Made by a program: the position numbers and the translations under genes. Below are positions 4,927-50,166 of a stretch of 64,000 nucleotides of DNA, one piece after another; the stretch's first letter is position 1, and each line of letters begins with the position of its first letter. The stretch is from positions 203,034-267,033 of the forward strand of contig JAHFKV010000001.1 in the NCBI GenBank assembly GCA_023245155.1. Direction: 5' to 3'. Under the pieces are notes generated by a model. The model ran no database searches. It was not told the DNA's origin and worked only from the letters and a program-made list of their open reading frames with translations. Source of the stretch: Candidatus Staskawiczbacteria bacterium (GTDB lineage Bacteria > Patescibacteriota > Minisyncoccia > Minisyncoccales > Staskawiczbacteraceae).

Positions 4927-4955
4927 TTGACATTTCCGGATCTTGGGTGCATACT
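4927..4955 (+). promoter_or_regulatory. Sigma70-like promoter of GC-rich cassette 1
   Basis: TTGACA (4927-4932), 17-nt spacer, CATACT (4950-4955). It lies 45 nt upstream of the GTG start, with SD AAGGAGG at 4986-4992. Confidence 0.45.
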
Positions 4956-4999
4956 AGCTATAGTTCGCTCATTCTTGCCCTAACCAAGGAGGTTTTGCT

Positions 5000-5452
5000 G
5001 TGAAGCACCCACCAGTTCATTTCCAGATTTTGGCAGTGTGTTCCAGTGTTCTCTCAAAGAAAAAGAGGGGGGAGCGTGGTAGGGCGATAAGCCATGTGTC
5101 AAGTTACTCAACCACAGTGACCCTGAAGGTTCGTGGAGAAAGGAAGCCGAGGACAATAGAGCTGCTGGCCTCTGATTCCACCGCTGTGTCTGAAAACAGC
5201 TTTGGGCAATCCCTGTTTAAGGCTATCAAGCAGGGATTGGTCGGTGATTTTCCGTGGCTTCAGGATTGCCGCCTGAATAAGATCGAGTATGGGGATGGCC
5301 AGGGATACTATTTTACCTGGGCGTTCGTGCAGGCTGACGCCGGAGTTCAGAAATTTGAGGGCATGGGAGATGACTCGAATTCTGCCACCATTGGTGCGCT
5401 CCAGGCTGCCTTCAACCATTTTTTTGGTCAGCACGTTGCCGAAAACAAGTAG
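5000..5452 (+). CDS. Hypothetical protein, 150 aa, GC-rich cassette 1
   Basis: GTG start 7 nt after AAGGAGG. Hand-counted GC is 232/453 = 51%. The unit has its own promoter and terminator. No family confidently recognised. Confidence 0.65.
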   Translation: MKHPPVHFQILAVCSSVLSKKKRGERGRAISHVSSYSTTVTLKVRGERKPRTIELLASDSTAVSENSFGQSLFKAIKQGLVGDFPWLQDCRLNKIEYGDGQGYYFTWAFVQADAGVQKFEGMGDDSNSATIGALQAAFNHFFGQHVAENK

Positions 5453-5464
5453 GTTCAGTGTTGG

Positions 5465-5495
5465 AGCCGGCTCGCATGCGAGCCGGCTGTTTTTT
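5465..5495 (+). terminator. Intrinsic terminator of cassette 1
   Basis: Perfect 10-bp stem AGCCGGCTCG/CGAGCCGGCT with loop CATG, followed by GTTTTTT. Confidence 0.8.
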
Positions 5496-5522
5496 GTGGA
5501 AATTCTGTGTTAAATTGAGAAT

Positions 5523-6728
5523 ATGAATTTTAAGAAATTATTAAAAAAAATCACGCCAGCGTTTTTACTAAATTGGTACCATTACAGCCTGGCATTTTTG
5601 GGAGCACTGATGTACCGATTTCCCAGTAATAATTTGACCGTGATTGGAGTGACGGGAACCTCCGGTAAGTCAACTACCGTAGATTTTATCACGAGAATCT
5701 TAGAAGAGGCGGGGCATAAGGTGGCTTCAACTTCTTCCATCCGCTTTAAGGTAGCTGACAAAGAATGGAAAAATAAAATGAAAATGACTATGCCCGGGCG
5801 TCTTGTTATCCAAAAACTACTTCGTCAGGCCGTAGACGCAGGTTGTAAATATGCCGTGCTGGAAGTTACTTCCGAAGGTATTAAACAGTCTCGCCATAAG
5901 TTTATCAATTTTGACACAGCAGTTTTTTTGAATTTGACGCCAGAGCATTTAGATTCCCATGGCGGATTTGAAAACTATCGGAATGCTAAAATGGAGTTAT
6001 TTAAGGCTACTAAAAATATCCATGTTATCAATGCCGAAGACGAAAATATGGAATATTTTTTGCAAATCCCCGCTCGTAAGAAAATCACTTTTGGCTTGGA
6101 AAAGGGTGATGTAAATTTGGCAACCAATCCAATCACCCTGCAATTGTTGGGAGATTTTAATAATTACAACGCCCTGGCTGCCATTGCTGTAGGCATGCAC
6201 TACGGCGTCTCAAGAGAGGTTTGTGCCAGGGCAGTTGAAAAAGTAAAAGGTGTGCCGGGCAGATTAGAAGTAGTTTCTCAGAACCCTGTGGTAGTGGTAG
6301 ATTATGCGTTTACGCCAGAACAGCTTGAAGCTTCGCATGGAGCAGTAAAAAAATACTCTGGCGGTAAAAGTTTAGTTTGTGTGTTGGGTTCATGTGGCGG
6401 AGGACGAGATAAGTGGAAAAGACCGGTGCTTGGGAAAATTGCTGCCCAAAATTGCCGAGAAATTATTATCACCAATGAAGACCCGTATGACGAAGACCCT
6501 CTGGAAATTATGGAGCAGGTGGCCAAGGGTATCGGAGAAAAGCCGTACCATATTGTATTAGATAGAAAAGAGGCTATTGAAAAAGCTTTAGAATTAGCAA
6601 CTCCCGCGGACGCCATAATCATCACCGGCAAGGGAGCGGAACCTTTGATGTGCCTAGCTGATGGTAAGAAAATTCCCTGGGATGATCGGGAAATTGTGAG
6701 GGAAGCCTTGCAAAGTAGAGAAAAATAG
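5523..6728 (+). CDS. Mur ligase family protein, MurE-like, lacking the usual N-terminal UDP-binding domain
   Basis: 401 aa. ATP-binding GVTGTSGKSTT, LTPEHLDSHGGFENYRNAK, and C-terminal ITGKGAE...WDDRE typical of the MurE C-terminal domain. Hydrophobic N-terminus. Confidence 0.8.
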   Translation: MNFKKLLKKITPAFLLNWYHYSLAFLGALMYRFPSNNLTVIGVTGTSGKSTTVDFITRILEEAGHKVASTSSIRFKVADKEWKNKMKMTMPGRLVIQKLLRQAVDAGCKYAVLEVTSEGIKQSRHKFINFDTAVFLNLTPEHLDSHGGFENYRNAKMELFKATKNIHVINAEDENMEYFLQIPARKKITFGLEKGDVNLATNPITLQLLGDFNNYNALAAIAVGMHYGVSREVCARAVEKVKGVPGRLEVVSQNPVVVVDYAFTPEQLEASHGAVKKYSGGKSLVCVLGSCGGGRDKWKRPVLGKIAAQNCREIIITNEDPYDEDPLEIMEQVAKGIGEKPYHIVLDRKEAIEKALELATPADAIIITGKGAEPLMCLADGKKIPWDDREIVREALQSREK

Positions 6729-6742
6729 TATATACTTTCGCT

Positions 6743-7009
6743 ATGTCAAAAAACGATACCATTCGAAAATCAGATAAGAAATTTATCCGCCTGGAAAAAG
6801 CCCGTATCCGCCGGCAGTTTTTTGATTTGAAAAAGCGCCAAGAGATGATTAATGAACTCTATAAAAGATTTATCAAAACGGATGCACAGCCGGTAATTAC
6901 CAAGGCAGAACAACCTAAGAAGGTGGAAAAACCCATCGGCCGTAGCCTGAAGGCTAAGCCTACGGGCGAGGCAAAAGCAAAACCTAAAAAAGTAGTAGCT
7001 AAAAAATAA
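6743..7009 (+). CDS. Small basic hypothetical protein (88 aa)
   Basis: ORF with a Lys-rich tail (KAKPTGEAKAKPKKVVAKK). No family recognised. Confidence 0.45.
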   Translation: MSKNDTIRKSDKKFIRLEKARIRRQFFDLKKRQEMINELYKRFIKTDAQPVITKAEQPKKVEKPIGRSLKAKPTGEAKAKPKKVVAKK

Positions 7010-7111
7010 TCGCATGAAACGCAACACCACCAAGCATAATGCCAGAATCAACAAGCGCTGGCGAAAATCACGGAGTAAGAAATATAAAAGCATCCAGTCA
7101 TAAATTGATTG

Positions 7112-7139
7112 CTGCCCGTTTGAAAGCGGGCAGTTTTTT
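7112..7139 (+). terminator. Intrinsic terminator
   Basis: CTGCCCG / CGGGCAG stem with an 8-nt loop, followed by TTTTTT. Confidence 0.7.
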
Positions 7140-7153
7140 GTTATAATAAATCC

Positions 7154-7417
7154 ATGAAACCAAAAAAAGTTAGCAAACCAGCGGGAATCGTCACTCATTA
7201 TTTTGACAAAATAAAAGTGGGTGTAATTAAGTTGGCCGTGCCCCTGAAAGAAGGGGATGAAATCAGGATTATGGGAGGAGAGAATACAGATTTTAACCAA
7301 ACGGTAAAATCTATGCAAGTGGACCATGAGCTGGTCAAAAAGGCTGCTAAGGGTAAAAGCATTGGTCTGAAGGTGAAAGAAAGAGTACGTGACGGATATA
7401 AGGTGTATAAAGTCTGA
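7154..7417 (+). CDS. Small beta-barrel protein resembling EF-Tu domain 2 (translation-factor-like)
   Basis: 87 aa. GIVTHYFDKIKVGVIKL...GDEIRI.G...F.Q.V.SMQVDH..V..A..G..IGLKV pattern typical of stand-alone EF-Tu-D2-like proteins. Confidence 0.55.
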   Translation: MKPKKVSKPAGIVTHYFDKIKVGVIKLAVPLKEGDEIRIMGGENTDFNQTVKSMQVDHELVKKAAKGKSIGLKVKERVRDGYKVYKV

Positions 7418-7429
7418 AATTGTAAAGAG

Positions 7430-7458
7430 TTGACATACCAGAAGTCCCACACTAGAAT
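7430..7458 (+). promoter_or_regulatory. Sigma70-like promoter upstream of greA
   Basis: TTGACA (7430-7435), 17 nt, TAGAAT (7453-7458), 20 nt before the ATG at 7478. Confidence 0.5.
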
Positions 7459-7477
7459 GAGCTATTAATAAAAAACT

Positions 7478-7945: not shown

Positions 7946-7997
7946 ATGTACGTTTCAAGAGGTGTCCTGCTGGGCGCCTTTTGTGATACAATAAAAT

Positions 7998-8636: not shown

Positions 8637-8638
8637 GT

Positions 8639-10369: not shown

Positions 10370-10370
10370 T

Positions 10371-10886: not shown

Positions 10887-10887
10887 T

Positions 10888-14031: not shown

Positions 14032-14039
14032 TTTTTTTG

Positions 14040-14393
14040 TGGAGATGCCGGCGATGAAGCCGGGTCCAGAAGTTGTTTTAAAATAATTCTACAAATGTAT
14101 CCTGTTTTTTTGTTCGGACGGCAAATAAGGAACAGGAAAAATTTTTGCCATCGTAATCCCTTTAAGGTTCGATTATTCCCAAGGGAAGAGAATAATCTAT
14201 CCTGATAATATAACACCGCTAGCTACCTATCAGGAGTGGATAGTAGCGATGCCAGTTAAGCGAAAGCTAAAACTGGTTGCTGCTTATTAAAGCTAAATAA
14301 GTTTGCAATTATGGTTTTCTAGAAGTTTTACCAGGTTCTAGAATACTGGATTTGCTTATTTTAAAAGGAAAATCTGTCGAAACAGTCATCCCC
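14040..14393 (-). ncRNA. ssrA: tmRNA (SsrA)
   Basis: The minus-strand 5' end GGGGATGACTGTTTCGACAG matches the tmRNA consensus. The 3' end is GGACCCGGCTTCATCGCCGGCATCTCCA (T-arm plus acceptor). The 7-bp acceptor GGGGATG/CATCTCC includes the G3:U wobble. Tag ORF 14306-14256 reads GCA AAC ... GCT TAA, giving ANLFSFNKQQPVLAFA*. The gene is adjacent to smpB. Confidence 0.85.
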
Positions 14394-14847: not shown

Positions 14848-14956
14848 TAGATAATACTACATTTATTTTTTTCCTAAGTAAATGATTGATTATTCTATAT
14901 AAACATGTATATTTAAATAAAATTTCATTAAGCTGTTCTTTCGGAGGGATCATCTC

Positions 14957-15277: not shown

Positions 15278-15308
15278 CATAGATAATGGTCGCACGACCG
15301 AGCAAAAG

Positions 15309-15338
15309 GTCGCACGTCTTCGGATGTGCGACTTTTTT
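15309..15338 (+). terminator. Intrinsic terminator of cassette 2
   Basis: GTCGCACGTC-TTCG-GATGTGCGAC (10-bp stem with one G:U pair, tetraloop), followed by TTTTTT. Confidence 0.75.
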
Positions 15339-15385
15339 ATTTTAAACCTTTAAATTTGGGCTGTTTTGTGATAAAATTTCCCAAT

Positions 15386-22017: not shown

Positions 22018-22494
22018 ATGCCACAATCATTTAATAATCCATTGCCAGAGCCCTTGTCTGAACGCCAGGAATCAGCCCGCCAAGAGCATCATAATCCATA
22101 TCCGTCAAAGAGTAGCTTTCTTAAGAGTATGGCTAAAGATGTCATTATGGGGCCCGAACACCTGCCGGAAAAATCAACCGATCCCGATAAAAAAGAAGTG
22201 GCTATGAATATAAAAACAAAAAAAGAACCTGTCGACAAAGAAAAAGAAGTGGAGTCTATTGATAAGATTTCCCGCCAAAAGCTGATAAGGGAGTTTAAAA
22301 AGGCGTATGAAGTAACCGATATGAGGGAAGCAGAAAGGGAAAAGTTAGGCAAAGAGTTACCTGCTAAAAGCCGCATAGATGTAAAAGTAAAGGATCTCGA
22401 AAAGTTTACCGAAAAAATCAAATATAAGGATGACCCCGAACTCAAAAGGAAAAAAAGGTTTATTGATAAAATGAAAGCAAAGTTATTTAAGTAA
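22018..22494 (+). CDS. Hypothetical Lys/Glu-rich protein
   Basis: 158-aa ORF tightly coupled to ileS and recO. No family recognised. Confidence 0.45.
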   Translation: MPQSFNNPLPEPLSERQESARQEHHNPYPSKSSFLKSMAKDVIMGPEHLPEKSTDPDKKEVAMNIKTKKEPVDKEKEVESIDKISRQKLIREFKKAYEVTDMREAEREKLGKELPAKSRIDVKVKDLEKFTEKIKYKDDPELKRKKRFIDKMKAKLFK

Positions 22495-23108
22495 TGGCTG
22501 TAAAGTATGCCACCGAGGCGTTCGTGTTTAATAAAGAAAACAACATGGAAGCTGACCGGATATTTTCTGTGTTCACCAAAGAATTCGGCCGGCTGGAGGT
22601 TTCCGGCAAAGCCATCCGCAAGATTGATTCAAAACTGCGCGGAGGAATAGATCTTTTTTCTTTTTGCGAGATTGAATTTATCCAGGGTAAGAGTAAAAAA
22701 ACGTTGACTGATGTCTTCCCCCGTCAACGTTTTGTGCATATTGCGCAGGACCCGGAAAAATATGCGATTGCTCGGCGCATATGCCAATTGGTTCAAGCTT
22801 GCATTCATGGCCAAGAAAAAGATGAACGCATTTTAGATTTATTGGTGGACGTGTTTTCCAAGCTGAATGCAGGCAAAGCCCGAAAGTTGATATACTACTA
22901 TTTTTTTTGGAATTTCATTGCTTTATTAGGCTATGAGCCGGAAATAAAAAGCATGGAAATCTCAGAAGAAGTGGCAATCGTATTAGCATTAATCATGAAA
23001 AAGGATTGGGTTGCTTTAGATGCATTAATCATTTCGGTTGCTACCCAAAAAGTTTTCCAAGAAGTTTCAGAAAAATATTATTCCCGTGTTATGGAGTCGC
23101 ATGCTTAA
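22494..23108 (+). CDS. recO: DNA repair protein RecO
   Basis: 204 aa. N-terminal OB-fold pattern (EAFVFNKEN..EADRIFSVFTKEFGRLEVSGKAIRK..SKLRGG.DLF). Confidence 0.85.
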   Translation: MAVKYATEAFVFNKENNMEADRIFSVFTKEFGRLEVSGKAIRKIDSKLRGGIDLFSFCEIEFIQGKSKKTLTDVFPRQRFVHIAQDPEKYAIARRICQLVQACIHGQEKDERILDLLVDVFSKLNAGKARKLIYYYFFWNFIALLGYEPEIKSMEISEEVAIVLALIMKKDWVALDALIISVATQKVFQEVSEKYYSRVMESHA

Positions 23109-24387
23109 AAAACTGATTCAAAATAATTTTTTTATTTTCTTTGCCTGTTTGGCAGTTTTATTATTAGGTTTTTTTGGTTTTTGGCATTACCGGGATGCGG
23201 TATTTTCAGGAGAAGTTTTACAGCTCACTATTTCTGCGCCGAGCACCGCAGCCATGGGGAATGAAATTACGTATACGGTAACCTATAAAAATAACGGGAA
23301 CTTTGTTTTAGAAGAGCCAAAACTGGTTTTTGAATTACCGGACAACTCTTTAACTGAAGATTCAAAAACCAGGATTGAGAAAAACATAAAAAATATTTAT
23401 CCGGGCGAAGAAGGTTTTGTTATTTTCAAAACCAGGTTATTGGGCAAGGAAGGGGATATCAAAACTGCCCAAGCTTCGCTTTCCTACATGCCCCATAATT
23501 TATCTGCCCGGTATGAATCCAATGCTTCAGCTACCACAACCGTTGCAACGGTTGACATGAATTTAACGTTTGATTTACCTGCAACCTTACAGCAAAAACA
23601 GCAACTGGTGTATTCCATTAATTATCTTTCCAACATTGATTATCCGCTGGAAAATTTGAGCATTAAGGTGGATCCGGTGCCCGGGCTTACCATTACTTCT
23701 GCCGATCCAGCTTCGTTAGATAACGCTGAATGGAAGTTGGATATTTTGCAAAAAGGCCAAGGCGGCACCCTGAAAATTATAGGTATGATCGCACCCGATG
23801 CTCCCACTCCCATGGTGTTTTCTGCGCGCCTAGGCATGCGGGTGAACGGCATGTTTGTGGTAGTAAAAAGCGTAATCCAAAATGTGCAGGTTCCCCAATC
23901 ACAAACTTCCATTTCTGAACCAATCAGCCAAAAAGTCTACTACACAAGCCAGAATGGTATTGATAACATTGGCCCTATTCCACCAAACGTGGGCAGTACA
24001 ACTACCTACGCAGTGGTTTGGCAAGTTGCGAATAATTCCCGTGCTGTTAAGAATGTAGCCATACAAGCTGTGTTACCCGCGGGCGTTTCACTGAATGATA
24101 ATGTGTTTCCTGAAGACCAGGGTGCAAGGCTTTCTTTTGATAATGCCAGCCGGAAAGTCACGTGGCTGGCGGGAGATTTAGCTCCGGGGGCATCGCCTTT
24201 GCTAACATTCCAAATTGCGTTGACCTCAGACGCTTCTATGCAAGGCAAACTAGCGCCGTTAATCGGCCAAGCCGTAGTTTCCGGCCAAGACCAGACCACC
24301 GGAATGCCTTTGACGGGCAGCGCCCCTGCGGTAGATAGCAGCCTACCTGATGATGTTGCAAATTCAGGCAAAGGGATAGTGCAATAA
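23101..24387 (+). CDS. Membrane-anchored surface protein with DUF11/CARDB-like repeats
   Basis: 428 aa from the internal ATG. N-terminal TM helix. Repeated G.EITYTVTYKNNGN-type motif. Confidence 0.55.
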   Translation: MLKKLIQNNFFIFFACLAVLLLGFFGFWHYRDAVFSGEVLQLTISAPSTAAMGNEITYTVTYKNNGNFVLEEPKLVFELPDNSLTEDSKTRIEKNIKNIYPGEEGFVIFKTRLLGKEGDIKTAQASLSYMPHNLSARYESNASATTTVATVDMNLTFDLPATLQQKQQLVYSINYLSNIDYPLENLSIKVDPVPGLTITSADPASLDNAEWKLDILQKGQGGTLKIIGMIAPDAPTPMVFSARLGMRVNGMFVVVKSVIQNVQVPQSQTSISEPISQKVYYTSQNGIDNIGPIPPNVGSTTTYAVVWQVANNSRAVKNVAIQAVLPAGVSLNDNVFPEDQGARLSFDNASRKVTWLAGDLAPGASPLLTFQIALTSDASMQGKLAPLIGQAVVSGQDQTTGMPLTGSAPAVDSSLPDDVANSGKGIVQ

Positions 24388-24470
24388 TGGAAAATCTGAT
24401 AGTATAAAGCAACATGAAAAAAGCCACCGCCACTGACGGGGTCCCGTCCGAAAGCGGGAAAAATAATCTC

Positions 24471-30231: not shown

Positions 30232-30299
30232 ACAGGTAGCGCAACTCAAATTCGGGCTCACGGGGGAGCTCACACACCTTTTGAAGGAGGTACTTAGAC

Positions 30300-30528: not shown

Positions 30529-30563
30529 AAGCTGGGTGATCAGGATTGATTGCCCAGCTTTTT
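30529..30563 (+). terminator. Intrinsic terminator of cassette 3
   Basis: AAGCTGGG ... CCCAGCTT stem (8 bp, 16-nt loop) running into TTTTT. Confidence 0.65.
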
Positions 30564-30580
30564 ACATGTATAATTTTCAT

Positions 30581-31339
30581 ATGATAATTGATACCCATAG
30601 TCACCTGCAATTTGACGCGTTTGACGCTGACCGCGACCAAGTCATCAAAAGAATGCTAGCAGAAAATATTCAGTGTATTAATGTTGGCTGTTCTTTGGAT
30701 TCCTCTAAAAAAGCGGTTGCATTAGCCGAAAAACACGAAGGTTTTTATGCTGCGATTGGCTTGCACCCCACCGATGCTGGCGAGCCGTTTGATGTGGCGC
30801 AATATCGAGCATTGGCACAATCAAAAAAAGTAGTGGCGATCGGAGAAATCGGTTTGGATTTTTTCCATAAACCTTACGACGAACAAAAACAAAAAGATAT
30901 TTTTTTACAGCAGTTAGCTCTGGCCGAAGAACTAAATTTGCCAGTTATCATTCATTGCCGCGCCGCGCATGAGCAAATGATAGAAATATTGAGAAATCAA
31001 AAGTTGGCGCGCCTGCCGGCAGGCAGGCAGGGCGTTATTCATTGTTTTACAGGAACTTTAGAGCAAGCTCAAAAGTATGTTGAGCTTGGATTTTACCTTG
31101 GGATTGGCGGAATTATTTTTAAGTTTAACATTGATAAGGTTATCCAAGAAACTCCGCTGGCAAAATTATTGATAGAAACCGATTGCCCGTTTTTAACACC
31201 CGCGGGTGCGCCGGAAAAAAGAAACGAACCAATATTTATGAAATACACCATTGAAAAAATTGCCCAACTTAAAAATATCAGTCCAGAAATGGTTGCCTCT
31301 GCAACCACAGAAAACGCGAAAAAATTGTTCGGTGTATAA
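30581..31339 (+). CDS. tatD: TatD family metal-dependent hydrolase/DNase
   Basis: 252 aa from the internal ATG. MIIDTHSHL, GEIGLDF, IHCR, ETDCPFL. Confidence 0.9.
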   Translation: MIIDTHSHLQFDAFDADRDQVIKRMLAENIQCINVGCSLDSSKKAVALAEKHEGFYAAIGLHPTDAGEPFDVAQYRALAQSKKVVAIGEIGLDFFHKPYDEQKQKDIFLQQLALAEELNLPVIIHCRAAHEQMIEILRNQKLARLPAGRQGVIHCFTGTLEQAQKYVELGFYLGIGGIIFKFNIDKVIQETPLAKLLIETDCPFLTPAGAPEKRNEPIFMKYTIEKIAQLKNISPEMVASATTENAKKLFGV

Positions 31340-31345: not shown

Positions 31346-31374
31346 TTGCTAAAATAATGGGACAGGTGTAAAGT
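31346..31374 (+). promoter_or_regulatory. Candidate promoter of cassette 4
   Basis: TTGCTA (31346-31351), 17 nt, TAAAGT (31369-31374). SD AGGAGG lies at 31418-31423. Confidence 0.35.
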
Positions 31375-31430
31375 ATAGCAATTTGCGTCGCACCTTGTTT
31401 CAGCACCTTGTTCTAAGAGGAGGACGTCCC

Positions 31431-31922: not shown

Positions 31923-31955
31923 TCCCGCCAGGCAGCTCTGGCGGGACTTTTTTTT
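31923..31955 (+). terminator. Intrinsic terminator of cassette 4
   Basis: TCCCGCCAG-GCAGCT-CTGGCGGGA (9-bp stem), then C and 8 T residues. Confidence 0.85.
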
Positions 31956-31987
31956 GCATATAAAGTGTGATAGCATAATTTAAAATA

Positions 31988-34387
31988 ATGATTAAATATA
32001 ATCCAGCTAAAATTGAAAAAAAGTGGCAAAAGAGGTGGTTTACTTCAGGCGTTTTTGAAGCGAAAAACTCTTCAAAAAAGCCAAAGTATTACCTGCTTGA
32101 CGAATTCCCGTATCCTTCGGGAGATGGGCTCCATGTGGGACATTGCCGGCCTTACATTGGTTTAGATGTGATTGCTAGGAAAAGGCGGATGCAGGGTTTC
32201 AATGTGCTTTACCCCATGGGCTGGGATGCTTTTGGCCTGCCTACGGAGAATTACGCGATTAAAAAAGGCGTTCATCCTGCCATAGTAACCAAAAAAAATA
32301 CTGCCAATTTTAAAAAGCAGATGAAAAATTTAGGGCTGTCTTTTGATTGGAGCCGGGAAATAAATACTACTGACCCAAAATATTATACATGGACGCAATG
32401 GATTTTTATCAAGTTGTTTGAAGCGGGAATGGCCTACAAAGATAAAATTAACATTAATTGGTGCCCAAAAGATAAAACGGGTTTGGCGAATGAAGAAGTG
32501 ATTAATGGTTGCTGTGAGCGCTGCGGCACTAAGGTTGAAAAGCGAGAAAAATCCCAGTGGCTGATTAAAATTACCAAATACGCTGATCGGTTAATTGAAG
32601 ATTTATCAAATGTGGATTATCCGGCGCGCGTTAAGGATCAACAAATAAATTGGATTGGCAGGAGCGAGGGAATCAACATTGATTATCAAATTGAAAATAG
32701 TAAAAAAGTTATTTCTGTTTTTACAACAAGACCCGACACTAATTTTGGCGCCACGTTTTTAGTGGTTGCCCCTGATGGAAAGTTTGTAAAAGAAAATGTG
32801 GAAGAGTTTCCTGAAAAAGAAAAAGTGAGAGCCTATGTGAAAGAATCGTTGGCCAAACCGGAAATAGATAGAACTGCAGAGGGCAAGAAAAAAACCGGGG
32901 TACCAACGGGCTGGTATGCTATCAACAACTTAAATGGCAAAAAAATGCCTATTTATGTGGGGGATTTTGTGCTGGGGCAGTTTGGAACCGGCTGCGTGGT
33001 TGGTGTGCCGGGGCACGATGTGCGCGACTTTGAATTCGCTAAAGCAATGGGGCTGGAAATTATCAGGGTGGTAGTGGGTCCCGATGGCGACAAGTCAGAA
33101 ATTACTGACGTAAAGCAAGTCCAGGAAGAAAAGGGAACCATGATAAACAGCGGATTTTTAGATGGCAGAGACATTCATGAAGCTACAAAGGTTATTATGG
33201 ATCATATAGTTGAGAAAGGTTGGGGTAAAAAGATTGTAAATTATAAACTGCGCGATTGGGTTTTTTCACGTCAGCATTATTGGGGCGAGCCGATTCCGAT
33301 GATTTATTGCGCGGCTTGTGGTTGGGTTACAGTTCCAGAAAAAGATTTACCGGTGGCATTGCCAAAAGTTACAAAATATCAGCCCACTGATGATGGCGAG
33401 TCACCCTTGAGTGCGATCGAAAAGTTTGTAAACACCAAATGTCCAAAATGTGGCGGCGCGGCAAAAAGAGAAACTGATACCATGCCAAATTGGGCAGGCT
33501 CTAATTGGTATTTTTTGCGCTACACCGATCCGAAGAATAATAAAAGTTTAGCTGATGAAAAGGTGCTAAAATATTGGATGCCCGTGGATTGGTACAACGG
33601 CGGTATGGAACATACTACGTTACATTTATTGTATTCGCGATTTATCTTTAAATTTTTGTGGGATATTGGGGCGTTACCAAAAGAAATCGGTAATGAACCT
33701 TATAAAAAGAGAACCTCCCATGGTATTGTGCTGGCTGAAGGCGGCGTGAAAATGTCAAAAAGCAAGGGAAATGTAATTAATCCGGATGATGTGGTTAAAG
33801 AATATGGCGCTGATACGTTGCGAGTGTACGAAATGTTTATGGGACCTTTCGAGCAAATGATTCCATGGGATACCAAGGGCATTGTTGGTGCACGCAGGTT
33901 TTTGGAAAAGATTTATATACTGGCGAATAAAAAAGTTGCTACAAAAAGCAGCCAGGATTTGGCATTAGCTTTAAACAAAACTATCAAAAAAGTATCGGAG
34001 GATATTGAGCTGATGAAGTTTAATACGGCAATAAGTGCCATGATGAGTTTTGTGAATGAATGGTATTCTTCAGAAACGGGATTAGACAAGAAAGACCTGC
34101 AAAAGTTTTTGACAATTTTATCGCCTTTTGCGCCGCATTTGGCTGCCGAATTAGGATTGAAAGAAAGAACATGGCCAACGTATGCAGAAATTCAGGAAGC
34201 TACGGTGATGATGATTGTTTCTGTGAATGGCAAAGTGCGCGATAAAATGGAAATGAAAAGTGGATTAGATCAAAGCCAAGTTGAAGGCTTGGTTTTACAT
34301 ACGCCAAAAATCAAACCATGGCTGGAAGGGAAACAGGTTAAGAAAATCATTTTCGTGCTAAATAAACTGATAAATATAGTCGTATGA
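31988..34387 (+). CDS. leuS: Leucine--tRNA ligase
   Basis: 799 aa. PYPSGDGLHVGH (HIGH), KMSKSKGN, CP1 editing domain. Confidence 0.95.
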   Translation: MIKYNPAKIEKKWQKRWFTSGVFEAKNSSKKPKYYLLDEFPYPSGDGLHVGHCRPYIGLDVIARKRRMQGFNVLYPMGWDAFGLPTENYAIKKGVHPAIVTKKNTANFKKQMKNLGLSFDWSREINTTDPKYYTWTQWIFIKLFEAGMAYKDKININWCPKDKTGLANEEVINGCCERCGTKVEKREKSQWLIKITKYADRLIEDLSNVDYPARVKDQQINWIGRSEGINIDYQIENSKKVISVFTTRPDTNFGATFLVVAPDGKFVKENVEEFPEKEKVRAYVKESLAKPEIDRTAEGKKKTGVPTGWYAINNLNGKKMPIYVGDFVLGQFGTGCVVGVPGHDVRDFEFAKAMGLEIIRVVVGPDGDKSEITDVKQVQEEKGTMINSGFLDGRDIHEATKVIMDHIVEKGWGKKIVNYKLRDWVFSRQHYWGEPIPMIYCAACGWVTVPEKDLPVALPKVTKYQPTDDGESPLSAIEKFVNTKCPKCGGAAKRETDTMPNWAGSNWYFLRYTDPKNNKSLADEKVLKYWMPVDWYNGGMEHTTLHLLYSRFIFKFLWDIGALPKEIGNEPYKKRTSHGIVLAEGGVKMSKSKGNVINPDDVVKEYGADTLRVYEMFMGPFEQMIPWDTKGIVGARRFLEKIYILANKKVATKSSQDLALALNKTIKKVSEDIELMKFNTAISAMMSFVNEWYSSETGLDKKDLQKFLTILSPFAPHLAAELGLKERTWPTYAEIQEATVMMIVSVNGKVRDKMEMKSGLDQSQVEGLVLHTPKIKPWLEGKQVKKIIFVLNKLINIVV

Positions 34388-39312: not shown

Positions 39313-39317
39313 TATTG

Positions 39318-39401
39318 TGCCCGAGGTGGGAGTTGAACCCACATGAGATTACTCTCGCGGGATTTTGAGTCCCGTGCGTCTGCCAATTCCGCCACCCGGG
39401 C
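39318..39401 (-). tRNA. tRNA-Leu (anticodon CAA), type II with long variable arm
   Basis: Minus strand reads GCCCGGGTGGCGGAATTGGCAGACGCACGGGACTCAAAATCCCGCGAGAGTAATCTCATGTGGGTTCAACTCCCACCTCGGGCA. Acceptor, anticodon loop CTCAAAA and T-arm GTGGG-TTCAACT-CCCAC all fold. CCA is not encoded. Confidence 0.9.
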
Positions 39402-42598: not shown

Positions 42599-43465
42599 TT
42601 AATTTAATGCATATGTGTTTCCCCCTAAGTTTCGTATCTTACCTGAAATTTCCATTAAGGCAAGCGTGGAGCCGACAACGGGCGCGCTTAATTTGGTTTT
42701 TTTAATGATGGCATCAATGTACAAACTTTCTTCTTGGAGGGCGTCAAAAATGAGTTCTTCATCGGCATTTTGGGCGACCGGCGCTTGTTGTAAAACCTTC
42801 TTGGGATCAATATCTAATACATCAAAAATATCCTGCGCGCTTTCGGTTAATGTTGCCCCGGCTTTAATTAATTTGTTGGGCCCTTCGGCGTTTAAGGTGT
42901 AAATCGGTCCGGGAACGGCAAACAATTTCTTTTTTTGTTGGATGGCAAGGTTAGCAGTTACCAGTGTGCCCGATGCCATTTTGGCTTCCACCACTAACAC
43001 CCCCAAACTTAATGCTACCACAATTCGGTTTCTTTCCGGAAAATTTCCAGCGTAACCTGGCGTGCCTTCTATGTATTCCGAAATCAAGCAACCGCCGGTT
43101 TTGACAATTTGCCGGGATAATTCTAAATTCTGTTTTGGGTAAATTGATTTTTCATCCAGCCCCGTGCCAAGCACAGCAATGGTTCGCGTACCTCTTTCCA
43201 CGCACGCTTGATGGGCAAACGTATCAATGCCCGGCGCCATACCTGACACGATTACTAATCTGGCGCCTAATAGTTCTTGGGTAATTTTTATAGTAGCTCG
43301 CTGGCCGTAATCAGAAGGCCTGCGCGTTCCTACAACAGCAAAACACTTTTCTTTATTGGTGGGCAAAATTCCGCGATAATATAATAATTTCGGTGCGCTA
43401 GAAATCTTTTTGAGCAACGCCGGATAGTTTTTGTCAGTGATTTTTATGGATTTGATCAAGTCCAT
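42599..43465 (-). CDS. dprA: DNA processing protein DprA
   Basis: 288 aa. VVGTRRPS.YG, SGMAPGIDT.AH, and a C-terminal winged helix. Confidence 0.9.
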   Translation of the reverse strand: MDLIKSIKITDKNYPALLKKISSAPKLLYYRGILPTNKEKCFAVVGTRRPSDYGQRATIKITQELLGARLVIVSGMAPGIDTFAHQACVERGTRTIAVLGTGLDEKSIYPKQNLELSRQIVKTGGCLISEYIEGTPGYAGNFPERNRIVVALSLGVLVVEAKMASGTLVTANLAIQQKKKLFAVPGPIYTLNAEGPNKLIKAGATLTESAQDIFDVLDIDPKKVLQQAPVAQNADEELIFDALQEESLYIDAIIKKTKLSAPVVGSTLALMEISGKIRNLGGNTYALN

Positions 43466-45961: not shown

Positions 45962-46046
45962 GTTACCTACATCATATATGCTTTTGTCAGCATTGACAAT
46001 AATACCTATCTTGCAATCCTGAAAAAAATATGTTACATTACGTGCT

Positions 46047-46646
46047 ATGGATGAGCAATTATCTCCCCAAGTAATCCCTCCCGAGCCAGAGAATATTTTT
46101 AAAAAGTACGCTCTTTTCGGCTGGGAAATCATTAAAATTTTAATTATCGCAGGCATTATTGTGCTGCCCATCCGTTATTTTTTATTCCAACCCTTTATTG
46201 TTAAAGGTGACAGCATGGTGCCGAATTTCCATTCAGGAGATTACCTAATTGTAGATGAGATTTCATATCGGTTGCACACACCCGCCCGCGGAGATGTGGT
46301 AGTGCTCAAATATCCTCTAAATACAACCCAGCGGTTTATCAAGCGTATCATTGGCCTGCCTGGCGAAACCGTTGATGTGAAAAATGGCATAGTTACCGTT
46401 ACCGAAAGCGACGGCAAGGCCATGGTATTGAATGAAAAAGATTATATTCCCGGCTCTTTCACCACCGATGGCACTATACATACCGTGCTCACCGGCGACC
46501 AATATTTTGTGATGGGCGACAACCGGCCTTTTTCTTACGATTCGCGGAGGTGGGGGGTGCTGCCAAAAGAAGATATTATCGGCCGGGCTTTGTTGAGGAT
46601 TTTCCCGTTTTCTCATATTTCATATCTTTCAAATCCAAATTACTAA
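46047..46646 (+). CDS. lepB: Signal peptidase I
   Basis: 199 aa. TM anchor, catalytic GDSMVPN and KRIIGLPGE, GDNRPFSYDSR. Confidence 0.9.
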   Translation: MDEQLSPQVIPPEPENIFKKYALFGWEIIKILIIAGIIVLPIRYFLFQPFIVKGDSMVPNFHSGDYLIVDEISYRLHTPARGDVVVLKYPLNTTQRFIKRIIGLPGETVDVKNGIVTVTESDGKAMVLNEKDYIPGSFTTDGTIHTVLTGDQYFVMGDNRPFSYDSRRWGVLPKEDIIGRALLRIFPFSHISYLSNPNY

Positions 46647-46647
46647 G

Positions 46648-47943
46648 ATGACAGAAAAAAAATTAAAATTACGAAGCTTAAGTGGCTTCAACGATATTTT
46701 ACCAAAAGACCAACCGTATTTTAAAAAAATACAAAAGTCTCTTGAAAGCACCACAAGTTATTACAACTTCCAAAAAATAGAAGTGCCGGTTTTAGAATTT
46801 GCCGAAGTGTTTTCAAAAGCCGCCGGCGGCACTTCTGATATTGTTGAAAAAGAAATGTATTCTTTCCGTACCAAGGGGGGAGATTTGGTTTGTTTAAGGC
46901 CGGAATTTACCCCGGGCGTGGTGCGCAGCTACATTGAACATGGTATGTACAATTTACCCCAGCCGGTGAAAGTGTGGGCTTGCGGCCCCTGTTTCCGCCA
47001 TGACCGGCCTCAAAAAGGCAGGTATCGCCAATTTTTTCAGGCAAGTTTAGAGGCTTTGGGAGACAAAAGCCCTTCCATTGACGGCCAGATCATCCAAATG
47101 AGTTATGATGTTTTAAAAGATTTAGGATTTAAGAATATCAACATTCAGGTAAACAGCATTGGGGATAACGAATGCCGGCCCTACTTTAAAAAGATTTTGG
47201 TAGGATATTTCAAGTCAAAAAAATCCGCACTATGTTCAGATTGCCAGCGCCGGTTAAGAGAAAACCCGTTAAGAATTCTAGATTGCAAAGAAGAAAAATG
47301 CCAGCAAGTAAAATCGGGTGCTCCCCAAATTGTGGATCATTTGTGTGAAACCTGCCACAAGCACTTTAAACAAGTTCTGGAATTTTTGGATGAATTGGAA
47401 TTACCGTACTCTTTAAATCCGTATTTGGTGCGCGGCTTGGATTATTACACCAAAACCGTATTTGAAATTTCTGAAAAAAGCGATATCGGAACAGAATACG
47501 GATCTTTAGCTTCGGGCGGTCGGTATGATGGCTTGGTAAAATTATTGGGCGGCCGTGATACGCCAGCTTGCGGGGTGGGCATCGGCATTTCAAGGATTAT
47601 GGAATTGATGATGGAAAAAGAAATGAAAACGGAGAAAAAGCCGGTAGAGGGTCCAAAAATATTCCTGGCCCAGTTGGGAGAAATGGCCAAGCGCAAAAGT
47701 TTGAAGCTGTTTGAAAAATTCCGCGATGAGAAAATTCCAGTGGCAGAATCTTTTTCTAAAGATTCGCTGCGCAGCCAGTTGAGCACTGCTAACAAAATGG
47801 GAATCCGTTGGGTATTGATTTTCGGCCAACGGGAAGCATTGGAAGGCTTTATTACGTTGCGGGATATGGAAAGCGGAGTACAAACGGAAATCACATTAGA
47901 CAAGGTCGTAGAAGAAATGAAGAAAAAAGTAAATAAAAAATAG
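46648..47943 (+). CDS. hisS: Histidine--tRNA ligase
   Basis: 431 aa. Class II motifs (LRPEFTP, FRHDRPQKGRYRQF, GGGRYDGL). Confidence 0.95.
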   Translation: MTEKKLKLRSLSGFNDILPKDQPYFKKIQKSLESTTSYYNFQKIEVPVLEFAEVFSKAAGGTSDIVEKEMYSFRTKGGDLVCLRPEFTPGVVRSYIEHGMYNLPQPVKVWACGPCFRHDRPQKGRYRQFFQASLEALGDKSPSIDGQIIQMSYDVLKDLGFKNINIQVNSIGDNECRPYFKKILVGYFKSKKSALCSDCQRRLRENPLRILDCKEEKCQQVKSGAPQIVDHLCETCHKHFKQVLEFLDELELPYSLNPYLVRGLDYYTKTVFEISEKSDIGTEYGSLASGGRYDGLVKLLGGRDTPACGVGIGISRIMELMMEKEMKTEKKPVEGPKIFLAQLGEMAKRKSLKLFEKFRDEKIPVAESFSKDSLRSQLSTANKMGIRWVLIFGQREALEGFITLRDMESGVQTEITLDKVVEEMKKKVNKK

Positions 47944-47955
47944 TAATACAAAACT

Positions 47956-48174
47956 ATGCCAGTCCAAGTAACAAAAAAAGACCGGGAAACCTCACAAAAC
48001 TTGGTTCACCGGTTTACTAAAACCGTGCGGGGGTCGGGACTTTTACTCCAGGTGCGCAGCAAACAATTCAAAAAGCGGGCAAAGTCAGCCTTGGCTAAAA
48101 AAAGATCAGCCCTAAGGCGAGTTACCATGCGGGCCGAGAAAAAGATGGCCGAAAAATTAGCTAAACCGAAATAA
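47956..48174 (+). CDS. rpsU: 30S ribosomal protein S21
   Basis: 72 aa, basic. LVHRFTK.....GLL..VR....F.K....K pattern. Typical rpsU-yqeY adjacency. Confidence 0.7.
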   Translation: MPVQVTKKDRETSQNLVHRFTKTVRGSGLLLQVRSKQFKKRAKSALAKKRSALRRVTMRAEKKMAEKLAKPK

Positions 48175-48672
48175 ATGTTAAAGCAAAAAATTCAAGCACA
48201 TATTAAAGAAGCCATGAAAGCCCATGACGAGCTTTTGCTGACCGTCCTGCGCGGAGCGATTGCGGCCGTGAATTCTAAGCAAGCCGAGAAACGGTATGCC
48301 TTGGTTAAAGCTGATGCTGCAAAAACAGAAGAGGTGTTAGTGGCAGAGTCGACACTCACCGATGACGAAATAATTGGCGTTATTTCCTCTGAAATTAAAA
48401 AACGCCGCGATGCCATTGCCTTGTATGAACAGGGCGGGCGAGCGGAATTAGCGGAAGGTGAGAGAAAAGAAATTGTCATGCTGCAAGCATATCTGCCCGA
48501 GCAGCTGTCGGCAGATGAACTGAAAAAGTTAATAGAAGAATCTATTGCCAAGGTGGGAGCTTCTTCTGTTAAAGACATGGGAAAAATCATGGCTGACCTT
48601 GTCCCAAAAACCAAAGGAAGAGCCGAAAACAGCGAAATCAGTAAAATAATTAAAGAGCTGTTAAACCAATAA
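48175..48672 (+). CDS. GatB/YqeY domain protein
   Basis: 165 aa. IKEAMKA.DE..L.VLR, KKRRDAIALYEQGGR.ELAE.E..EI..L..YLP. Confidence 0.85.
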   Translation: MLKQKIQAHIKEAMKAHDELLLTVLRGAIAAVNSKQAEKRYALVKADAAKTEEVLVAESTLTDDEIIGVISSEIKKRRDAIALYEQGGRAELAEGERKEIVMLQAYLPEQLSADELKKLIEESIAKVGASSVKDMGKIMADLVPKTKGRAENSEISKIIKELLNQ

Positions 48673-48676
48673 TTCT

Positions 48677-49366
48677 ATGCAGAAACTTTTACCAATTGGT
48701 GATTTGTTTAAAAAGAGTTTCGAACTGTATAAGCCGCGAATTTGGACTATGCTATGGCTTGGAGTGATAAGCTGGATCAGTTCCATAGTGATTTTTGCCG
48801 TTTTTGGAATAGCCGGGTTTACCACATTTGCTCTTGGCAGGAATATTCTCACGTTTAACTTATTTTCCCTATTACTCTTTTTAATAGGCGTATTGCTCGT
48901 AGTTATTATTAATGTGTGGATCCAGGTAGCTATGATTTACGCCGTTAAAGAAGAACACGCAACAAGCAGTATGAAGAATTTATTGTTGGCAGTGCGGGGC
49001 AAGATGGCTTCGTATTACTGGATTGTATTTTTGCGGGGTCTGGCGTCGGTGGTAGGATTTATTTTATTTATTATCCCTGGTATTATTTTTTCTGTTTGGT
49101 TCTGCCTATCCCAATACGCCTTTGTGTTTGAAGATAAGAAAGGTTCAGGCGCCCTTGGGCGAAGCAGGCAACTGATAAAAGGATATTGGTGGCCGGTGCT
49201 GGGAAGATTATTGATTTTAATGGTTATTGCCGTTTTAATTTCTTCTATCTCTAAAATAGGATTTTTGATTAATTCATTATTCACCGTACCGTTTGGAATT
49301 GTATATCTGTATGTTATCTACGAAGATTTGAAACAGATAAAGGGTGCTTTATTGCCGGTTGTATAA
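48677..49366 (+). CDS. Hypothetical multi-pass membrane protein
   Basis: 229 aa with 5-6 hydrophobic helices. No family recognised. Confidence 0.55.
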   Translation: MQKLLPIGDLFKKSFELYKPRIWTMLWLGVISWISSIVIFAVFGIAGFTTFALGRNILTFNLFSLLLFLIGVLLVVIINVWIQVAMIYAVKEEHATSSMKNLLLAVRGKMASYYWIVFLRGLASVVGFILFIIPGIIFSVWFCLSQYAFVFEDKKGSGALGRSRQLIKGYWWPVLGRLLILMVIAVLISSISKIGFLINSLFTVPFGIVYLYVIYEDLKQIKGALLPVV

Positions 49367-49388
49367 GATTTTTTAGGAATATTTTACA

Positions 49389-49424
49389 ACAGCGCCCCGA
49401 TGTACATCGGGGCGCTGTTTGTTT
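49389..49424 (+). terminator. GC-rich hairpin terminator upstream of cassette 5
   Basis: Perfect palindrome ACAGCGCCCCGATG-TA-CATCGGGGCGCTGT followed by TTGTTT. Confidence 0.7.
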
Positions 49425-49450
49425 GCAAAAGCAATAAAAGAGAGTAGTAT
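49423..49450 (+). promoter_or_regulatory. Candidate promoter of cassette 5
   Basis: TTGCAA (49423-49428), 16 nt, TAGTAT (49445-49450). SD AAGGAGG lies at 49476-49482. Confidence 0.35.
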
Positions 49451-49488
49451 GATAAGCATTCACTACAACCAAATAAAGGAGGTGAAAA

Positions 49489-50133
49489 GTGAAAACAGTT
49501 GTTCTTTCTGGCTTTCGTCGCTTTGGCGACTACCTTGCCAATTCAACGGCAATTGTAGCGCGGCAGCTAGATCAGAAGGTCCTTGGGGGCGTTCGGGTTG
49601 AGTCAATCGTATTCAGCGCGGCTATTCCCAGAATCAATCGGGGCAAGCAGCTGGTTGGTTTTGCCAGACGCGTTGATGCAAGCGCAATCATTTCCCTGGG
49701 AATGGCTTCGGACAAATCGGGTTTGTGTGTTGAGCACGTGGCTCAAAACAGGATTGACGGAAAGTACGTTCCGACTTCAATGAAAGGCGCCCGCATTGAT
49801 GTGGCCCAACCCTACGGCCATGAGCTTGAGCTGGATCTTGCGCCCTGGAGGTTTGAAAAATTAGCACAGTCTTGTATGACTGCGGGCGTGCCAATTATGA
49901 GGCGTTCGCGCAACGCAGGAGGTTTTTGCTGTAACCACTTAATGTGGCAGCTGCATCAAGCCCAGCTCGGTGTGCCAGCTAAAAAAAGAATTTCGGCCAT
50001 CTTCCTGCACGTTCCGTGTTCCTTGGCATCCGTTGCTGACCTGGATGCTTTCACTCAAGCTGGGAAGGTAACCATGGAGCCAAGTGAAATCATCAAGGGG
50101 TTGGCGTTGCTTATAAAGCATGCGTCAATCTGA
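49489..50133 (+). CDS. Peptidase C15 (pyroglutamyl-peptidase I-like) cysteine peptidase, GC-rich cassette 5
   Basis: 214 aa. GTG start 6 nt after AAGGAGG. MKTVVLSGF..FG N-terminus. Putative Glu-Cys-His triad contexts are retained (LCVEHVAQN, AGGFCCNH, IFLHVP). Hand-counted GC is 333/645 = 52%. Confidence 0.7.
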   Translation: MKTVVLSGFRRFGDYLANSTAIVARQLDQKVLGGVRVESIVFSAAIPRINRGKQLVGFARRVDASAIISLGMASDKSGLCVEHVAQNRIDGKYVPTSMKGARIDVAQPYGHELELDLAPWRFEKLAQSCMTAGVPIMRRSRNAGGFCCNHLMWQLHQAQLGVPAKKRISAIFLHVPCSLASVADLDAFTQAGKVTMEPSEIIKGLALLIKHASI

Positions 50134-50135
50134 AA

Positions 50136-50166
50136 ACCGCCACGTCGCCCTGTGTGCGGTTTTTTT
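50136..50166 (+). terminator. Intrinsic terminator of cassette 5
   Basis: Imperfect hairpin ACCGCCAC...GTGTGCGGT followed by a T-run (50160-50166). Confidence 0.55.

Follow-up and report, generated by a model that had tools for sequence, protein, structure and literature searches.

Groundwater Patescibacteria are described as carrying individually transferred genes and small genomic islands, and pili- or competence-based DNA uptake has been proposed for them (mSystems 2025, PMC12455944); Planctomycetota have 0 occurrences in the donor table and text of that work. A separate survey found an anti-Shine–Dalgarno (anti-SD) motif in 48 % of the 16S genes of Parcubacteria (Tsurumaki et al. 2022, PMC9297842). 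The stretch analysed here (the window) comprises 64,000 nt of contig JAHFKV010000001.1 of a Candidatus Staskawiczbacteria bacterium, an ultra-small organism from groundwater. It contains five single-gene units, termed cassettes: C1 (5000–5452), C2 (14957–15277), C3 (30300–30503), C4 (31431–31901) and C5 (49489–50133), all on the + strand. With a probability of roughly 0.7, the five units are horizontally acquired single-gene islets, placed in intergenic slots of Staskawiczbacteria and partly adapted in composition. The slots lie between conserved housekeeping operons, and presence at syntenic sites is patchy; the C4 site is empty in the related locus L002, and the C1 and C2 sites are empty or otherwise filled in relatives.

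Sixty-five genes were curated in the window, with starts checked against public gene calls where these exist. The backbone was identified as Candidatus Staskawiczbacteria (Parcubacteria, candidate phyla radiation, CPR) by relatives of tatD, which come from Candidatus Staskawiczbacteria metagenome-assembled genomes (MAGs). Two related Staskawiczbacteria loci, L002 (MAG nzgw419) and L003 (RIFCSPHIGHO2_02_FULL_43_16), were available for comparison, and backbone identity places the window nearer L002 than L003. An additional 38 related loci were obtained via PolX and used to compare sites and to look for homologues of C1 and C2.

The guanine-plus-cytosine (GC) contents of the coding sequences (CDS) of C1–C5 are 0.512, 0.514, 0.583, 0.563 and 0.516, respectively. 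These are the five highest values among the 65 genes (z 3.1–5.3; Mann–Whitney p=2e-4), the 60 backbone genes having a mean of 0.411, a standard deviation of 0.033 and a maximum of 0.483. GC at third codon positions (GC3) is 0.48–0.77 in the cassettes versus a backbone mean of 0.42, and the codon-usage likelihoods of the cassettes fall 2.9–5.2 standard deviations under the backbone mean (z −2.9 to −5.2). A 500-nt profile shows isolated GC peaks of 0.47–0.53 at all five cassettes over a background of about 0.41.

Translation signals divide the genes along the same line. A GGAGG, AGGAG or GAGGA motif occurs between positions −20 and −4 in 5/5 cassettes and 0/60 backbone genes (Fisher p=1.2e-7). 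The Shine–Dalgarno (SD) motifs end about 5–9 nt before the starts and read AAGGAGG in C1 (4986–4992, 7 nt before GTG), GGAGGGA in C2 (14943–14949, 7 nt before GTG), AAGGAGG in C3 (30284–30290, 9 nt before ATG), GAGGAGGA in C4 (within the feature AGAGGAGGA at 31416–31424, 7 nt before ATG) and AAGGAGGT in C5 (49476–49483, 5–6 nt before GTG). Predicted anti-SD duplex energies are −12.4, −10.0, −13.5, −11.9 and −16.0 kcal/mol for C1–C5, a range of −10 to −16 that no backbone gene approaches, each of these being −6.3 or weaker. The 3′ end of 16S rRNA was sought across all fetched loci and the window and was not found. The original prediction, made from the letters of the window, had described five GC-rich cassettes foreign to the backbone, each with an SD that the backbone genes lack. 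Its hand counts and its cassette and SD coordinates proved accurate, the compositional and codon statistics identify the same genes as outliers, and the five differ from the backbone in both composition and translation signals.

Transcription signals are less even. Each cassette is followed by a hairpin plus T-run: C1 at 5465–5496 (a 12-bp perfect hairpin, top-ranked of segment 1–20000), C2 at 15304–15345, C3 at 30529–30565, C4 at 31923–31955 and C5 at 50134–50166. In the ranking of sites per 20-kb segment, those of C1, C2 and C4 take first or second place, the C4 site being the best of its segment. Terminators are not exclusive to cassettes, and backbone ones are found at 7111, 12851 and 49388. 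With a scan threshold of 9/12 consensus positions, upstream promoter pairs pass in three of the five cassettes: TTGACA-17-CATACT of C1 (4927–4955, 10/12, implying a leader of ~37 nt), TTGATT-16-TATATT of C2 (14886–14913, the left portion of a region that extends to 14926 with a repeat copy discussed below) and TTGACG-17-(TG)TATAGT of C3 (30203–30231, 10/12 with the TG). The pairs of C4 (TTGCTA-17-TAAAGT/TATAGC, 31346–31379) and C5 (TTGCAA-16-TAGTAT, weak, 49423–49453) match 8/12 positions by eye and fall under the threshold. Promoter-like matches show no clear enrichment over shuffles in this AT-rich DNA; the csrA (C3) promoter is nonetheless conserved in two further species. The cassette −10 boxes lie at least 35 nt upstream of the start, with implied leaders of roughly 30–70 nt. 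Of the earlier claim that every cassette has its own promoter and terminator, the terminators are borne out at all five, albeit also present on the backbone, and the promoters are the weakest part.

Native genes begin differently. In seven operon-first backbone genes (mur ligase, the gene at 7154, an MFS gene, pyrH, the gene at 24414, leuS and ybeY) an extended −10 box of the TGnTAnAAT type ends 5–11 nt before the ATG, and no SD is present. An eighth case, by eye, is tatD, with a TTGATT-17-TATAAT pair at 30546–30574, the TATAAT (30569–30574) of which lies 6 nt before the second ATG (30581). This second ATG is probably the start of tatD and is also the choice of one public caller. The −10 regions are at 5496–5522, 7120–7153, 7960–7997, 15355–15385, 24388–24413, 30546–30583, 31955–31990 and 50170–50201. 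From their position, the native operon-first genes would have the geometry of leaderless mRNAs. Gene-start classes in the GeneMarkS-2 work reportedly include bacteria rich in leaderless mRNAs. The genome offers a natural experiment, with about 60 native SD-less, apparently leaderless genes beside five foreign genes with strong SDs.

This arrangement has a practical consequence for annotation. Public callers, trained on an SD-less genome, started C1 at ATG 5096 (118 aa), 32 codons short, and C2 at ATG 14969 (102 aa), four codons short. Look-ups on the long NCBI and ENA contigs yielded nothing identical to the 67-aa CsrA of C3. Public callers with SD-less training mis-start or miss the cassette genes.

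A promoter–SD–CDS–terminator architecture this close to the textbook could raise suspicion of a chimeric assembly, bin contamination or engineered sequence. A Logan contig (L001, SRR14366769) is 100 % identical to the window over 6,319 nt through uvrB, ruvA, C1 and the mur ligase to polX, and a second (L010, also SRR14366769) is 100 % identical over 3,575 nt through metG, csrA, tatD and C4 into leuS. An ENA contig from another sample (L011, ERZ27280214) is likewise 100 % identical and covers the C3 junctions only. At the level of gene calls, a 429-kb ENA contig (ERZ27296333) has the same ruvA-to-mur and C5-to-ybeY spacings as the window, and the C5 junction spacing agrees in two assemblies, ENA and Logan; gene calls with matching spacing also come from Logan SRR14366772. 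Cassette proteins are also on record for a 661-kb NCBI contig. The DNA-level junction comparison covers C1, C3 and C4, and C5 is covered by gene-call spacing; C2 is without a DNA-level comparison. Additionally, orthologous cassettes occupy the same sites in the separately deposited MAGs nzgw419 and RIFCSPHIGHO2_02_FULL_43_16. Since all comparable junctions are identical in independent assemblies, a chimeric or engineered origin, which the original prediction had left standing, is excluded for practical purposes and retains next to no probability.

Evidence on donors differs between the cassettes. C4 nests within a donor clade, the relatives of C3 are GC-rich and in this sense suggestive, and those of C5 lie in low-GC contexts with no donor named. 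C4 encodes 156 aa (GC3 0.68) and has 190 homologues at 53–74 % identity, the named ones being from Planctomycetes/Gemmataceae plus one Candidatus Uhrbacteria. It shares with this family full-length homology, 27 invariant residues, an N-terminal signal-like segment and an eight-stranded barrel. The family is unnamed; similarity to LIC10280_fam is weak, with a score of 37.5 for NCBIfam NF050085 versus a cut-off of 100. In four loci on contigs of GC 0.61–0.62 (L012, L016, L057 and L058) the homologue lies directly after leuA, with a Ser/Thr kinase downstream in three. The Planctomycete homologues have a GC of 0.61–0.64 and a GC3 of 0.81–0.89, the same as their surroundings. Because gene GC equals context GC and the leuA synteny is kept, the family is native in the Planctomycete contigs. 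GAAGGAG or TGAGGAG stands before the gene there, within a T-rich leader that resembles the leader of C4.

The CPR copies of C4 are intermediate in composition (window GC 0.56, GC3 0.68; L003 GC 0.59, GC3 0.70). Among third positions that are G or C in all four Planctomycete genes, 21/73 are now A or T in the window and 14/74 in L003; about 20–30 % of C4 third positions have been converted towards A/T. Over a 110-column core, identity is 83 % between the window copy and P0002 (from L057) and 87 % between the L003 copy and P0048, a Gemmataceae protein, but only 75 % between the two CPR copies. The quartet (window,P0002 / L003,P0048) was recovered in 1000/1000 bootstraps, and shared rare diagnostic residues are spread along the entire coding sequence. 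The two CPR copies of C4 are not mutual closest relatives and derive from different Planctomycete sublineages. By phylogeny, synteny and composition, C4 descends from a Planctomycetota (Gemmataceae-like) family. CPR bacteria have acquired genes of this family from Planctomycetes on at least three occasions: twice in the same Staskawiczbacteria slot and once in Uhrbacteria.

The C4 junctions add a history of insertion and exchange. An exact 10-nt direct repeat, TAAAATAATG, has its left copy at 31350–31359 within the promoter-like region and its right copy at 31981–31990 (P about 0.01); sequence inspection and the terminator scan place the C4 terminator, the leaderless leuS promoter and the right copy in succession over 31923–31990. 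The right copy includes the leuS ATG, and the left copy is a relic of the leuS start. Excision of C4 in silico with one repeat copy restores tatD-17 nt-ATG(leuS), colinear with the empty site of L002. The left junction of L003 is, by eye, the same as that of the window, with the relic ATG followed by aggcgggtgtatagt, and the non-coding flanks of the cassette are homologous between window and L003 (z 7.3 upstream, 8.6 downstream). The upstream flank is not present in the Planctomycete loci compared. One shared junction combined with two Planctomycete CDS ancestries implies allelic replacement or cassette exchange after a first insertion. Furthermore, the C4 site is empty in L002 although L002 is nearer the window than L003, which implies loss, favoured by the direct repeat, or exchange. 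The statement in the original prediction that no target-site duplication accompanies any cassette is therefore wrong for C4 and possibly for C2, where an exact 10-nt repeat is also found. An AlphaFold model of C4 (pLDDT, predicted local distance difference test, 82.5) is an eight-stranded up-and-down barrel resembling avidin or fatty-acid-binding proteins (FABP), with a domain of 1jju_A (quinohemoprotein amine dehydrogenase) as best PDB match. On this model, C4 is likely a secreted small-ligand binder.

C3 encodes a CsrA-family RNA-binding regulator of 67 aa with a Pro/Ala-rich tail (GC3 0.765). It matches PF02599 over residues 1–49 (E=1.3e-22, 80 bits versus a cut-off of 27), and its alignment to RsmE 2jpp keeps Arg44; against the NCBIfam equivalog TIGR00202 it scores 66.1 bits, just under the 70.1 cut-off. 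The metG–tatD interval holds csrA in all three Staskawiczbacteria loci: as a single type A copy in L002, as a tandem of types A and B in L003, and as type B only in the window. Identity between the window C3 and the type B copy of L003 is 70 % across the full protein and 81 % within the CsrA domain. Both the promoter TTGACG-17-TGCTATAG/A and the leader are conserved between species. Taking the csrA and C4 flanks together, homology of promoter, leader and terminator between the window and L003 or L002 gives z values of 4.6–8.6. The C3 terminator, homologous to that of L002, is followed by the tatD −10 box and leaderless ATG. The csrA slot is old and the gene content within it is variable.

All csrA copies in the three species are GC-rich, with a GC3 of 0.59–0.77. 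The two type-A copies are 91 % identical in protein, have saturated synonymous sites and both retain a GC3 of about 0.6; backbone synonymous sites are saturated across the three species as well. Synonymous divergence (dS) was dropped as a clock, backbone sites being saturated and the GC-rich genes being constrained by codon bias. That csrA has kept its GC3 despite saturated backbone sites requires either replacement from outside or selection. The latter would fit a view in which all five are old resident genes of a special expression class, with GC and SD maintained by selection and reflecting function rather than origin. In favour of such residents, csrA persists in one slot across three species, where its promoter, leader and SD are conserved, the type-A pair combines saturated synonymous sites with a GC3 still near 0.6, and the relatives of C5 in other small genomes also have leader, SD and terminator. 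C4, placed within a family whose synteny and composition are native to Planctomycetes, does not conform, nor do C1 and C2, which are absent from every relative and whose sites hold unrelated genes or nothing; moreover, the C5 relatives are not GC-rich. Long residence under selection suits csrA best and does not hold for C4, C1 and C2; as an account of all five cassettes it is unlikely.

The nearest non-CPR relatives of C3 that were reached are 57–65 % identical and lie in IMG/VR contigs of GC 0.57–0.69, with gaaaggagtc-type SD sites, similar Pro/Ala tails and no taxon attached. Sequence comparison thus points to a GC-rich source for csrA. A plasmid search for a CsrA donor gave only distant gammaproteobacterial matches, which were uninformative. 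The original prediction had considered CsrA, C4 and the 106-aa product of C2 Planctomycetota-like and had traced the cassettes to an SD-using lineage of higher GC. The Planctomycete assignment holds for C4, and for CsrA what was found amounts to GC-rich relatives with similar SD contexts; the SD-using, higher-GC source agrees with the contexts of C4 and CsrA and disagrees with those of C5.

The C3 leader carries a second G-rich GGA-type motif, GGGGGAG, at about 30262–30268. In E. coli, the autoregulated csrA leader has a GGA overlapping the SD plus an upstream GGA-type motif. Like members of the CsrA/RsmA family, C3 has an SD-overlapping GGA together with the upstream G-rich motif; it differs in its Pro/Ala tail, its sub-equivalog score and its genomic setting, in which native genes have no SD/GGA leader. 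These features raise the possibility of a CsrA-centred module, in which the GGA-rich 'SD' motifs would be mainly or additionally CsrA sites and an imported CsrA would control its own mRNA and the other SD-led genes. Such a module is compatible with a foreign origin. In its favour, CsrA is among the five, and only these five of 65 genes have GGA-rich leaders. The csrA leader keeps the upstream G-rich GGA-type motif and the SD motif in three species, the C2 and C4 leaders have two adjacent GGA motifs, and an anti-SD was found in only 48 % of Parcubacteria 16S genes (PMC9297842); in a lineage of this kind, a conserved SD-like motif would need another reader. However, GGA motifs in all five leaders follow trivially from the SD, and the C1 and C5 leaders have a single GGA. 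No cassette leader folds more stably than shuffled controls or presents a GGA in a hairpin loop, and neither FliW nor a small-RNA partner was seen near C3. Ordinary SD pairing stays the simplest reading, and a CsrA module is improbable, to about the same degree as long residence. As a separate observation, the csrA leaders (window 30270–30290; L002 9718–9740; L003 9745–9765) share an arrangement CCU(C/U)UUU...GAGG/AAGG with the C4 leader (31395–31424) and with the regions upstream of the L057 and L058 homologues of C4. The pyrimidine tract could pair with the SD in the csrA and C4 leaders; the folding energy is no better than shuffled.

C5 encodes 214 aa resembling pyroglutamyl peptidase I (Peptidase C15). 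As in Pcp of family C15, the match to PF01470 runs end to end (profile positions 2–198 of 204; E=5e-12, 46.7 bits versus a cut-off of 22.7) and the Glu/Cys/His triad is kept, VEHVAQN, FCCNH and LHVP aligning with the 1a2z motifs. Its score of 62.8 bits falls far short of the Pcp equivalog cut-off (199 bits), and no clustered protein exceeds 50 % identity to it, which marks a divergent subfamily. A representative search for the C5 donor likewise went no higher than 50 % identity and named no taxon. Judged by sequence, C3 is likely an RNA-binding regulator and C5 likely a cytosolic pyroglutamyl peptidase. The C5 terminator is followed by the extended −10 box of ybeY.

C1 (150 aa, GC3 0.576, identical in L001) and C2 (106 aa) are orphans. 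C1 has no match in Pfam, NCBIfam, PHROG, PADLOC, PDB or viral sequences; C2 likewise matches no family, a word-index search of 5.8 billion proteins with it matched only itself, sequence searches of JGI metagenomes, IMG/VR and PDB were empty, and a single-sequence AlphaFold model was unusable (pLDDT 41.7). No homologue of either was found in any fetched locus, including the 38 PolX-derived relatives. C2 is flanked by an exact 10-nt direct repeat, ATAAAATTTC, at 14917–14926 and 15371–15380 (P about 0.02–0.04); the right copy follows the C2 terminator and lies inside the −10 region of pyrH. A tmRNA gene (14037–14393, − strand; Rfam RF00023, 112.7 bits) lies beside smpB, and C2 is across smpB rather than at the tmRNA 3′ end.

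The slots of C1 and C2 vary in content between relatives. Of five informative relatives at the ruvA/mur slot, L033 is empty, L026 and L035 have a Cys-rich gene of 73–107 aa, and L045 has another small SD-led gene; in L022 (4900–5690) an IS200/RAYT-like open reading frame (ORF) was recognized by eye, with the inverted repeat gtgttcaacacccgacgttgaacat / gtgttcaacgtcgggtgttgaacac. At the smpB/pyrH slot, L027 has a 190-nt spacer without an ORF of 60 aa or more, and genes of GC 0.53–0.58 occur in three of the four other informative loci: a homologous 190-aa SD-led gene in L033 (12248–12817) and L035 (18351–18926), and a gene of 94 aa and GC 0.53 in L038 (13051–13335). Both sites behave as hot spots. 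Further GC-rich single genes are found in L003 (15757–16497 and 16775–17146) and L002 (15589–16161, − strand); such inserts, often SD-led, are thus general in the clade and turn over quickly. Across relatives, the intergenic single genes have a GC of 0.49–0.58, several with SD-like motifs and terminators. A comparison of orthologous sites had been called for originally, as a check for empty sites in relatives. For C1 and C2 the sites are empty or hold other genes; the CsrA and C4 slots are common to other Staskawiczbacteria, and their cassettes are not private recent arrivals.

Slot reuse and repeats raise the question of a mobile element, and placement of the cassettes by an integron-, transposon- or phage-like system was considered. 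In its favour are the exact 10-nt direct repeats around C4 and C2, the C4 left junction identical in two species, the IS200/RAYT-like ORF in the ruvA/mur slot of L022, and CsrA-like genes in IMG/VR contigs and PHROGs. However, no integrase, transposase, attC-like site or terminal inverted repeat was seen in or beside the five cassettes. C1, C3 and C5 have no flanking repeat beyond chance, viral relatives were not found for C1, C2 and C5, and the cassettes bear their own promoters, unlike integron cassettes. Terminator hairpins were the only inverted repeats found after the genes when attC sites were sought, no attC covariance model having been run. Pfam tables of called genes around C1, C5 and the short C3–C4 locus contain no integrase domain, as the original prediction had also read from the window. 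With regard to defence or phage origin, PADLOC was empty and PHROGs matched only CsrA-like regulators. Carriage as mobile-element cargo is thus very unlikely, clearly more so than either long residence or a CsrA module.

Repeated single-gene acquisition, one of the explanations offered in the original prediction, remains the best reading, and a sequence of steps can be proposed for it. Each gene would have entered as naked DNA together with an SD-bearing leader of its own, donated by neighbours or hosts that are GC-rich and use SD sites; that leader and SD arrived with the gene is shown for C4, by the resemblance of its leader to the donor leaders. The window encodes DprA (42599–43465, −), ComEC (PF03772; 52816–54294, +) and RecO (22494–23108, +), and their joint presence makes natural transformation a plausible route. 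Integration would take place next to where a leaderless backbone gene begins; at C4 it would have duplicated 10 nt and left the leuS ATG intact. The cassette would then be transcribed from a local sigma-70-type promoter and closed by its intrinsic terminator, and the downstream backbone gene would restart from its own extended −10 box 5–11 nt before the ATG. Slots would be reused, the C4 slot by two Planctomycete ancestries and the csrA slot with one or two paralogues per species.

Several points weigh against acquisition as the explanation for all five cassettes. Donor ancestry is established for one gene of the five, C4. The foreignness of C1 and C2, which have no relatives, is argued from composition and signals only. 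The high GC3 of csrA in three species persists longer than simple amelioration predicts. The three C5 relatives with readable context (40–50 % identity) sit in CPR-like DNA of GC 0.40–0.46. Two of these have a leader, an AAGGAGG-type SD and a terminator, and in the third (L018) only a weak SD of GAGG type is present. The two closest relatives show no GC elevation, and the L018 copy, with a GC of 0.49, is slightly above its context of 0.45. Since its relatives are not GC-rich, high GC is no property of the C5 family, which may circulate among small or CPR genomes rather than stem from a GC-rich donor. The DNA-uptake route is suggested by gene content only, and expression and translation of the cassettes are predicted from sequence.

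A bolder reading joins two of the above lines and takes Gemmataceae-type Planctomycetes as host or obligate neighbour of the lineage, with CsrA gatekeeping foreign genes. Repeated draws of Gemmataceae type into the same slots, with one junction and different alleles, would imply a stable physical association. Likewise, with native leaderless genes and many Parcubacteria without an anti-SD, imported GGA leaders might be read or gated by CsrA. This combination is doubtful, somewhat more so than the CsrA module by itself. Hosts and gene-flow partners of Parcubacteria are almost unknown, and the C4 family offers a concrete candidate partner. Interest would rise if genome-wide dominance of Planctomycete donors, or a 16S rRNA without anti-SD, proved true.

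Other features of the window and of related loci are recorded here. A 99-aa gene of no family at 46317–46616 (− strand) has the maximum GC of the backbone (0.483), cassette-like atypical codon usage and no SD, and might represent an acquired gene that is older and has partly adapted. A GC peak at 24074–24390 (up to 0.585) was tried as a cassette and rejected, lying within the 3′ part of a 449-aa DUF11-repeat gene, which by reading is of surface-protein type. A tRNA-Leu(CAA) gene is located at 39317–39401 (− strand). A purF-like gene (amidophosphoribosyltransferase-like by eye) in L023 (11565–12965), L027 (10326–11750) and L028 (6431–7828) is 7–16 GC points over its locus, with a conserved leader gataataagaag.cg.aag...gttcgttga and a strong terminator after it; it may be another acquired gene or a regulated leader.

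Comparison with described systems places the cassettes within a known process. Integron cassettes are similarly compact single-gene units, dispersed or stacked at defined sites, and their content likewise turns over rapidly from one relative to the next, but they have attC, IntI and a common Pc, whereas here each unit has its own promoter and terminator and the units are scattered between operons with no array. Both SD-poor Parcubacteria (PMC9297842) and leaderless-rich bacteria resemble the backbone, which is without SD and has a −10 box 5–11 nt before the ATG. That work treats genomes as wholes; here a foreign minority keeps strong SDs, and the contrast is visible gene by gene. Whether the cassettes are translated, and how, matters for a question raised in the literature, namely whether SD pairing persists in some Parcubacteria ribosomes. 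The closest parallel is the groundwater Patescibacteria of PMC12455944, in which streamlined CPR genomes likewise harbour lone accessory genes whose composition is foreign; the MAG set of that study shares the 'nzgw' name prefix with the isolate of L002. Unlike in that system, a Planctomycete family is the source of C4, twice, and the inserts also differ from the native genes in their mode of translation initiation and reuse defined intergenic slots. What sets this locus apart is the use of a Planctomycete source at least two times for one slot, the split between leaderless native and SD-led foreign genes, and slot reuse with a recognisable junction. The case is one of individual gene transfer as known from groundwater Patescibacteria and not a new kind of element.

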